Shown: positions 41,884 to 43,180 of the stretch, piece after piece
Numbering within the stretch: the stretch's first letter is position 1
Layout: each line of letters opens with the position of its first letter
Assembly (NCBI GenBank): GCA_030390025.1
Contig: CM059431.1
Location: 102,486,001 to 102,550,000 of the forward strand
Source of the DNA: Squalus acanthias
Taxonomy: Eukaryota
DNA length: 64,000 nucleotides
Reading direction: 5' to 3'
The notes under the pieces: generated by a model
Seen by the model: only the letters and a program-made list of their open reading frames with translations
Database searches by the model: none
What the model was told of the DNA's origin: nothing
Translations under genes and position numbers: made by a program

Positions 41884-42619
41884 CTGAGCAAATTAGAGAA
41901 CAAGAAAAGGTTCATGTGACTTTTTTCACACGCTTTCAATTTTGCAGCCCTCTGATTTAATTGGTTAATTGAGAAGGTCTATTGTGCACAATTTGGGATT
42001 TTGAACAGATGAGAAAACAAAAGTCATACATTAATCCAAAAGTAATCAAATCTTAAGTAGGCCCACAAGCAAGCAATACCATGTTTGAAACATGACACAA
42101 GCAGCATTTGTGATCACCTTGTTATAACAATCTGATAGATTCTGGATTTAGGGTTGTATCAATAACTCAACCCACCCTTCGACCTACCCACCCCTTTAGT
42201 CCCTCTTTCCCTCCCATTCATCCACTCCTCTCACCATCCACTCATTTACCTCTTTCATCAAGGCCCCAAGCTCTGGAATTCCCTTCCTAAATCTTTCCGC
42301 CTCTCTACCTCTCTCTCCTCCTTAAAACCTACCTCCTTGACCAAGCCTATCGTACTATCTCCTTATGTGGCTCGGTGTCAAATGTCTGTCTGATAACGCT
42401 TCTGTGAAGCGCCTCTGGACATTTTACTACATTAAAGGTGCTATATAAATGTAAGTTGCTGTTGTTTCCTACCCTCTTGCCTTTCCTCATCTCTTCTTTG
42501 TGCTTCCAACAGTCGCCTCTTATCCCCACCCCTTCTCCGTCTACTCCATCCCCACTTGCTTGTCATTCATGACTCATTTACACAGCAATTATATGTAATA
42601 TGTAATCTTTTACATGTAC

Positions 42620-43180
42620 CGGAAGGTCCAAGAGAATCGCCAGTTCTTCTGAGAAGTACTCATAATATGCATCCAAATCAGGCCATGGTTCGAAGGCTGC
42701 TGTGTGACCATCCTCCACAAACAAATAATAGCACTCCTCAAAATCCTTTCTGTCCATCACCTTAATGGAAATATCTCTCTTCAAAAGATCCCTCAGGGAA
42801 CGCTGGACATGAGGATGTTTGAGATAGTATTCTCTTGACACCTTTATGGTCATGTTAATTTTGTTCTTGAATTTTTCATGGAAATCTATTATACGGCAAC
42901 AGCAGTTTGCACAAGGGTTATAAGAGAGATAATAGGTAACCGTGTATTTTTCTGCATTAGGAGAAATATTTTCCACTAAATAGTTTTCCATTTTATTTAT
43001 GACTAATTCTTCTGCATGGCTTCTCTGTAGATCATTAATAGCGTAGCCCCACAGGTCAAATAATATTCTGTTGTTTTGCTTCAGTAGGAAGCAAAGTAAA
43101 GTGAAGTGTGGTTTTGCAGTATTATCAAATCCCTCATAGAAGTTCCTTTTAGCCAATTGTCCTCTCAAGTTCAAAGGCAT
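42620..43180 (-). CDS. AID/APOBEC-family cytidine deaminase, catalytic exon (187 codons; probable NAD1/APOBEC5-type)
   Basis: ORF 42578..43261 carries H-A-E and SYN-P-C-A-N-C zinc motifs, and the AID-like C-terminal half (SREYY...LRDL...ISIKVM...DFEECY..FV...FEPWPDL). ATG at 43180 has A at -3. Candidate donor CCG|GTACAT after 42620; without splicing the ORF stops at 42578. Confidence 0.9.

Follow-up and report, generated by a model that had tools for sequence, protein, structure and literature searches.

The window, by which we mean the whole 64,000-nucleotide stretch of the Squalus acanthias genome that was analysed, carries on its minus strand a deaminase gene of three coding exons. All three have GT-AG boundaries, a GT donor lies directly after codon 187, and the product is 270 aa long, the same length as isoform X1 of the sawshark Pristiophorus. 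We regard the gene as almost certainly the shark orthologue of APOBEC5 (A5), a family also known as NAD1 or UA2. The parts of the gene, and the start of its downstream neighbour, are as follows:

43181..43405, minus strand: 5' untranslated part of the first coding exon, with an acceptor AG at 43407-43406 after a pyrimidine tract
42620..43180, minus strand: first coding exon, codons 1-187, with the entire AID/APOBEC deaminase domain; contigs end at 42620 in four of four sequencing runs
41835..41883, minus strand: second coding exon of 49 nt, comprising codons 188-203 and one further base, placed by tblastn of two shark relatives and by its AG/GT ends
32587..32789, minus strand: third coding exon, with the low-conservation tail and the stop codon; contigs start at 32789 in four of four runs
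27355..27435 (approximate), minus strand: first coding exon of the neighbour IPO5, with its ATG at 27435, 5.2 kb downstream of A5

The C-termini of two longer shark relatives map by tblastn to about 41.9 kb and to 32.8-32.6 kb of the window. Splicing was checked in four of 11 sequencing runs, which were aligned to the gene; these runs are presumed to be RNA (none is recorded as such), and the evidence for splicing is the joined contigs, not the run labels. In three of the four runs (X2, X5, and X6, from two studies), exons 1 and 3 are joined in one contig without any mismatch. Exactly 49 letters separate the outer exons in these spliced contigs, so that exon 2 is matched by length only. The fourth run provides two contigs ending at the same exon boundaries. 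No processed copy was found in the genome, where the protein has two matches, the second being APOBEC2. The preliminary description of this DNA had named absence of transcription, combined with a dN/dS near 1, as grounds for dismissing the gene; spliced contigs are seen in three of the four presumed RNA runs.

The same description had worked from a 200-aa ORF at 43180-42578 on the minus strand. Codons 1-187 of this ORF are indeed coding, and the claim that one exon holds the entire catalytic domain is borne out, as residues 1-187 lie in the first coding exon. Its last 13 codons and stop (42619-42578) are intronic, and the description missed two coding exons and the tail (270 aa instead of 200). 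We rejected the 200-aa read-through protein because the contigs listed end at 42620 and the relatives run on into exon 2. Beyond the contigs listed, a minor form reading through 42620 may exist besides the spliced one.

Contigs also extend 106 letters (run X1) and 312 letters (run X6) upstream of 43406, so at least one further 5' exon exists. A stretch at about 48190-48215 that resembles an E2F/NRF1/ETS promoter, accompanied by a donor at 48089, would have suited the proposed cell-cycle control but was rejected, as it belongs to a young high-copy repeat: all 40 scored candidates (of 1486) match, with 39 other copies at 95-97%. The repeat itself (48060-48330 of the window) contains a series of E2F-, NRF1-, and ETS-like motifs and, after them, a good splice donor at 48089; it could conceivably serve as a mobile promoter.

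The first coding exon carries the complete active site:

43010..43018, minus strand: H55-A56-E57, comprising a zinc ligand (H55) and the catalytic glutamate (E57), identical in all 22 rows of the alignment
42902..42916, minus strand: P89-C90-A-N-C93, zinc ligands; none of P89, C90, and C93 varies among the 22 rows

In zinc deaminases of this family, H55, C90, and C93 hold the zinc ion and E57 shuttles the proton in hydrolytic cytosine deamination. All motifs that had been listed from the sequence (H55-A-E57, S86-Y-N-P89-C90-x2-C93, TLLCFLLKQ...DLWGYAIND, and REYYLKH) are present in the ORF. Among the alignment rows, the window protein and the sawshark have SYNPC in place of SxSPC. A structure prediction for residues 1-187 reached a pLDDT of 92 and a pTM of 0.90, and the closest PDB match of the predicted fold is APOBEC3C (3vow; TM 0.83, E 2e-18), followed by other APOBEC3s and AID. 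The shark protein thus shares with AID and APOBEC3 the fold (TM 0.78-0.86), the zinc site, and a loop 7 whose R116-E-Y-Y aligns with RLYY, but it is only about 25% identical to them, falls in a separate clade, and lacks the SWSPC and RLYFC motifs of AID.

Features reported for NAD1 (PMC5889660; PF18778) are found as well. C30 lies in predicted strand 28-35 and C150 in predicted helix 144-154, corresponding, together with C90-x2-C93, to the strand-1 Cys, helix-5 Cys, and Cx2C of the clade, and the C-terminal extension after helix 6 consists of residues 188-270, encoded by exons 2 and 3. The shark copy differs from the clade in having FDN for FNN where loop 1 begins and IND for YNN where loop 3 begins. 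However, FNN is found in a close relative (D19N) and in the chimaera, and published NAD1 members vary here (FCN, FSS, FSN), which makes FNN a tendency instead of a strict criterion. Similarly, loop 3 starts with I48-N49-D50, N49 being present in at least 90% of rows, and published members read YNK, YND, HNN, or FNR. The Z-domain consensus that Tian et al. give for A5 (2025 preprint, 10.1101/2025.05.21.655229) is matched with exact spacing and identity at 12 of 16 positions (differences at I61, N88, D136, and I137), in a fixed-offset check limited to the three sharks, as the chimaera model and protein P0006 carry one-residue indels.

We searched 1.84 billion representatives for homologues, obtaining 210 matches at E <= 0.001, of which 150 were listed. 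The best single-domain matches listed are A5-type proteins of Heptranchias, Callorhinchus, devil, bichir, gar, and lizards. Orthologues in other cartilaginous fish are Pristiophorus isoform X1 (81% identity), Heptranchias XP_067842678 (72%), and Callorhinchus A0A4W3GN99 (53%). A tree was built from 70 rows chosen from 172 extracted domains plus the genome's own APOBEC4 (71 rows), rooted on two lamprey-type rows of our choice. Rows were labelled as AID, APOBEC2, and APOBEC4 from motifs in published alignments; the labels APOBEC1, APOBEC3, and lamprey CDA are our own assumption. The A5 clade contains 22 rows with a support of 100/98, including the devil, gar, and coelacanth reference sequences, and three accessions of the published NAD1 alignment lie inside it (XP_003765824, XP_015218855, and H3B7Z9). 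Within this clade, the window protein, sawshark, Heptranchias, and chimaera form a cartilaginous-fish subclade (100/100) that follows the species order, with the chimaera outermost. The placement of A5 among the other families has weak support in the tree (81/59). Two deaminase domains are present in the coelacanth A5 model, each falling within the A5 clade, and sawshark isoform X2 lacks the zinc motifs and keeps the tail.

Could the gene instead be a divergent APOBEC2 paralogue, or an APOBEC3? The first is what Pfam would indicate, as the APOBEC2 model scores 136 bits (E 1e-39) and the NAD1 model 129 bits (E 4e-37); the second is what databases would indicate, as the shark relatives are named APOBEC-3C-like and 3H-like. 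We rejected the Pfam rank as a classifier because published NAD1 members show the same ranking (gar 165 vs 123; coelacanth 239 vs 232), and APOBEC2 (PF18772) is above NAD1 (PF18778) in 12 of 18 A5 proteins scanned; Pfam-based counts thus mislabel the A5 family. Forcing the four cartilaginous-fish rows elsewhere was rejected by AU tests, both into APOBEC2 (p 3.6e-5) and into AID (p 4.8e-5). The window protein is 44% identical to devil A5 vs 25% to APOBEC2 and AID of the same genome, a true APOBEC2 being present elsewhere in it, and no APOBEC3 row falls within the A5 clade of the 71-row tree. We consider both alternatives refuted by the tree and AU tests and give them practically no weight.

The A5 assignment agrees with the preliminary description, which had proposed an NAD1/APOBEC5-type gene distinct from AID, APOBEC2, and APOBEC4 and had suggested a phylogeny as a check, a grouping with AID or APOBEC2 counting against it: that grouping is rejected at p<1e-4, and separate AID, APOBEC2, and APOBEC4 genes are found elsewhere in the same genome, in which A5 is single-copy. 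APOBEC4 had been set apart by HPE and a longer spacer, and rightly so, the genome's APOBEC4 having HPE and C-x6-C and the window protein HAE and Cx2C (blastp E 0.04 between the two). The exons of the genome's AID lie on two separate high-numbered contigs, C1917 and C1606 (L004 and L007), and the gene thus looks split in the assembly.

The various names of the family can be reconciled. UA2 is equated with APOBEC5 by Ito et al. (PMC6955324), and NAD1 is APOBEC5 as well, since XP_003765824 sits in the NAD1 alignment and is also the A5 query of Tian et al. The shark copy shares with APOBEC5/UA2 the clade, H55, E57, PCxxC, the consensus positions and devil identity given above, a length within 260-277 aa, and a poorly conserved tail with two terminal motifs. 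It differs in its cartilaginous-fish host, in SYNPC for SxSPC, in DI for GV, and in RRML for KRKL. The range published for NAD1 (Krishnan et al. 2018, PMC5889660) is limited to ray-finned fish, coelacanth, amphibians, lizards, and marsupials, and in the part of that study's supplement covered here, six of six matches to "Chondrichthyes" fall in the alignments of AID, APOBEC2, and APOBEC4, with none in that of NAD1. The origin of the family in jawed vertebrates, which the preliminary description had inferred, is supported by three sharks and a chimaera in the A5 clade, and is already claimed by Tian et al. from 36 species including "jawed fish", of which only sturgeon is named. Sharks, cartilaginous fish, and synteny are not mentioned in the main text of that preprint; a shark may stand in its Fig. 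1B, as its BLAST cut-off of 1e-30 with devil A5 as query could catch public shark models. Existing automatic annotations of cartilaginous fish include two shark models with the same tail as the window protein and a chimaera model without it, called APOBEC-3C-like, 3H-like, or generic deaminase instead of A5. The novelty of the gene itself is thus limited, as related sharks carry auto-annotated copies and the jawed-vertebrate origin is in a preprint. In literature listings that are thin in subscription journals, we found nothing on shark A5, on A5 beside IPO5, or on a cyclin motif in A5.

In two related genomes, exon 1 shows 17 and 16 differences, with no stop and no indel, and the zinc ligands are untouched. 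A dN/dS near 1, together with absence of transcription, had been named beforehand as an argument against the gene; the 17 changes relative to one close relative (12 non-synonymous and 5 synonymous) give a pN/pS of 0.66 (p 0.39 against neutrality), with which neutrality and constraint are alike compatible. The case for function is instead that the gene is spliced and that its frame is open at 53% identity to the chimaera.

In this genome, the gene order is RAP2A, A5, IPO5, on one strand. The adjacency to IPO5 had been noticed earlier and is confirmed, IPO5 starting 5.2 kb downstream in the same orientation; one of its later exons shares 92% identity with a shark importin-5. On the other side, 113 kb upstream, lies a RAP2-type gene, also on the same strand, whose sole PDB match at E <= 1e-70 is RAP2A. 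Its coding sequence (L017:1916-2467, minus strand) is one uninterrupted frame; human RAP2A presumably has an intron. Between A5 and RAP2A, only transposon domains were found in 57 of 84 ORFs of at least 130 aa plus five window ORFs, a search that short exons would escape. This interval includes a 1214-aa open LTR-retrotransposon frame with RT, RNase H, and integrase (L010:6358-9999, plus strand), which reaches the end of its stretch. An 800-aa open frame at L011:2964-5363 (plus strand) has no Pfam match, is GC- and CpG-rich with long frames in other phases, and is probably repetitive. Positions 54052-57589 of the window hold a Harbinger-like transposon, with a Myb/SANT ORF on the plus strand and a DDE_Tnp_4 transposase ORF on the minus strand.

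The human counterparts of the two neighbours, RAP2A and IPO5, border a single interval at 13q32.2, their promoter fragments being separated by about 550 kb (PMC4619060); this interval is hence the likely site of the lost human A5 gene. A search for synteny through neighbouring accessions found no NCBI-numbered A5 species in the IPO5 clusters, of which 15 of 34 members were listed, and the UniProt identifiers of chimaera A5 and IPO5 are close, which is uninformative on synteny.

The tail of the protein, encoded by the third exon, carries three short motifs:

32695..32706, minus strand: T232-P-K-K, predicted full CDK consensus site
32644..32655, minus strand: T249-P-Q-K, predicted full CDK consensus site, corresponding to "PxK" of Tian et al.; K invariant in 16 of 16 rows
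32593..32610, minus strand: A264-R-R266-M-L268-F269, predicted RxL cyclin-docking motif, counterpart of "KRKL" in Tian et al., with R and L unchanged in all 16 rows

Tian et al. described PxK and KRKL as two conserved tail motifs for which a critical function was suggested and none named, and the text of the preprint contains no mention of cyclin, CDK, phosphorylation, or NLS. With the sharks added, the two motifs can be read as T-P-x-K and R-x-L-(x)-F, that is, as a predicted CDK site and a predicted cyclin-docking site, T-P-x-K being the full CDK consensus (PMC5993806) and [RK]xLx{0,1}[FL] the cyclin-docking consensus (PMC12356897). This reading, a putative CDK site 17-21 residues before a putative cyclin-docking RxL, is new as far as our literature search reached.

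The R-x-L-(x)-F terminus is present in 20 of the 34 A5-clade sequences examined, sharks and marsupials among them. The tail is missing from the other 14, including the only chimaera model; five of these share a cluster with a tailed sequence and appear to be alternative gene models. Removal of three near-duplicates left 17 tails, which were chosen after the motif had been seen and are not independent samples: in these, P-2 is R in 17/17, the last hydrophobic residue is F in 17/17, P-3 is K or R in 17/17, and P-4 is V or A in 16/17. Measured preferences of cyclin binders match the tail residues at P-2, P-3, P-4, and the final F, and E2F1 VKRRLDL nearly copies the A5 motif (PMC12356897). The spacing from T-P-x-K to RxL is 17-21 residues in 15 of the 17 tails and 33 in the other two, with an unconserved linker; we found no usable published rule for the distance between an RxL and a phosphorylation site. 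In shuffled tails, the motif pair arises in at most 0.35% of cases for any tail (0.1% for the window tail), and it is found in none of the 126 other AID/APOBEC matches, which further sets A5 apart from AID and APOBEC3. In the window protein, A-R-R-M-L-F matches the core RxL pattern ([RK]xLx{0,1}[FL] with V/A/I/C at P-4 and K/R at P-3). The strict consensus, which adds E/D/S/T within four residues after the core, is matched by 8 of the 17 tails and by none of the three sharks, because no such residue follows F (the window tail ends in F-K-stop). C-terminal positions were of lesser weight in the cyclin screen, in which fewer than 15% of the peptides matching the strict consensus bound a cyclin (PMC12356897).

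The tail also contains a Cys/His cluster at residues 205-227 (32787-32719 of the window). All three sharks retain C208 and C223 of this cluster, along with one His of each of the pairs H218/H219 and H226/H227, and the cluster may be a second metal site.

We modelled a complex of Heptranchias cyclin A2 (residues 167-426) with the A5 tail of the same species (residues 228-271), along with three controls. The cyclin A2-tail model scored 0.90 vs 0.02 for the best of the three controls, with runs agreeing in at least 74% of contacts. The tail partner has a pLDDT of 50-52, and its L269 and F270 contact the MRAIL helix of cyclin A2 in the model (Heptranchias numbering). In a microbial calibration of the score, which excludes peptides and disordered chains, 51 of 78 solved complexes came up to this mark, as did 2 of 108 mismatched pairs; the alignments supplied were not used in the prediction. 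The score probably reflects solved cyclin A-RxL structures. As peptides are uncalibrated and similar complexes are already solved, the model shows likeness, not binding.

The best explanation overall, to which we assign a probability of roughly 0.55, is a shark APOBEC5 that is likely a C-to-U deaminase of single-stranded DNA, with a predicted cyclin-CDK switch in its tail. According to this explanation, the 270-aa zinc deaminase would turn C into U in single-stranded DNA. This substrate is likely for the shark protein by analogy with its opossum and devil orthologues, which cause mutations at cytosines of E. coli rpoB (a 10.3-fold rise for opossum A5) and lower the infectivity of Vif-less HIV-1 by about 40% (10.1101/2025.05.21.655229). 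The earlier statement that the substrate is unknown is thus out of date for the clade, marsupial A5 mutating rpoB at cytosines. An A- or E-type cyclin would bind the RxL motif, and CDK2 or CDK1 would phosphorylate T249, perhaps T232 too, in S/G2; the motifs and the complex model tip the balance slightly in favour of such docking and phosphorylation of T249. Phosphorylation would then hold the mutator back at the time when replication forks expose the cell's own DNA in single-stranded form, and would leave it free in G1/G0 to act against retroelement or viral cDNA. That phosphorylation restrains the enzyme in S/G2, as that of T592 does in SAMHD1, is a more tentative proposal made by analogy. 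SAMHD1 is an antiviral enzyme, with a T-P-Q-K phosphorylated by cyclin A2-CDK1/2 and restriction off in cycling cells (PMC5993806), and has a cyclin A2-binding LF peptide (PMC12356897), the A5 side of the parallel being predicted. It differs in its unrelated fold and chemistry (dNTPase) and its atypical docking motif.

Other functions can be proposed for the terminal motif. It might be a basic nuclear localisation signal, with the T-P sites tuning import or being incidental, as literal KRK is present in 11 of the 17 tails, further basic patches occur in the shark tail, and marsupial A5 is found in nucleus and cytoplasm, differing between cells (10.1101/2025.05.21.655229). However, KRK is missing from six tails, including those of all three sharks (RRML in the window protein), which keep RxLF, and this disfavours a plain import signal. 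Moreover, K-[KR]-x-[KR] occurs in the last 16 residues of none of the 17 tails, and L, F, and a small aliphatic residue at P-4 are generally not needed for import. We thus consider this alternative unlikely, bearing in mind that the two roles can coexist. The RxL might also be read by cyclin F, a component of an SCF ligase, which would time the degradation of the deaminase in S/G2 instead of docking a kinase. Cyclin F binds RxL motifs without CDKs and has a strong preference for Arg at P-2 (PMC12356897), the residue found in all 17 tails, but ligase docking would have no need for a full CDK site at a near-fixed distance (17-21 residues in 15/17), and we judge it slightly less probable still.

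It is similarly improbable, on a par with the import signal, that shark A5 edits RNA, or binds nucleic acid without catalysis, in a developmental role comparable to that of APOBEC1, 2, or 4, instead of serving as a defensive DNA mutator. A single copy in this genome, the SYNPC variant here and in the sawshark, and the modest restriction by marsupial A5 (about 40%, and none for MLV; 10.1101/2025.05.21.655229) would suit such a role. Against it, two marsupial orthologues mutate DNA (10.1101/2025.05.21.655229), NAD1 is classed among the high-entropy, fast-evolving clades (PMC5889660), and the catalytic residues are all invariant. We somewhat favour A5 as a DNA editor with a cell-cycle switch, in which an RxL-CDK site pair, kept at a fixed distance since the jawed-vertebrate ancestor, would gate the mutator in parallel to SAMHD1. 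The shark copy, in which RxLF is kept and KRK dropped, would expose the grammar of the motif.

Since three sharks and a chimaera fall together in a single clade, cartilaginous fish provide direct evidence that A5 is as old as jawed vertebrates, a claim which in the text of the preprint is traceable only to unnamed "jawed fish". The names NAD1, APOBEC5, and UA2 are united, and the "APOBEC3-like" labels of shark proteins are wrong. The RAP2A-IPO5 interval is the place to seek traces of the loss of A5 in placental mammals. Finally, if our reading of the tail is true, it offers a cheap test for two motifs that the only A5 study calls critical and leaves unexplained, and A5 would illustrate one way in which vertebrates may shield their own replication forks from a DNA mutator.
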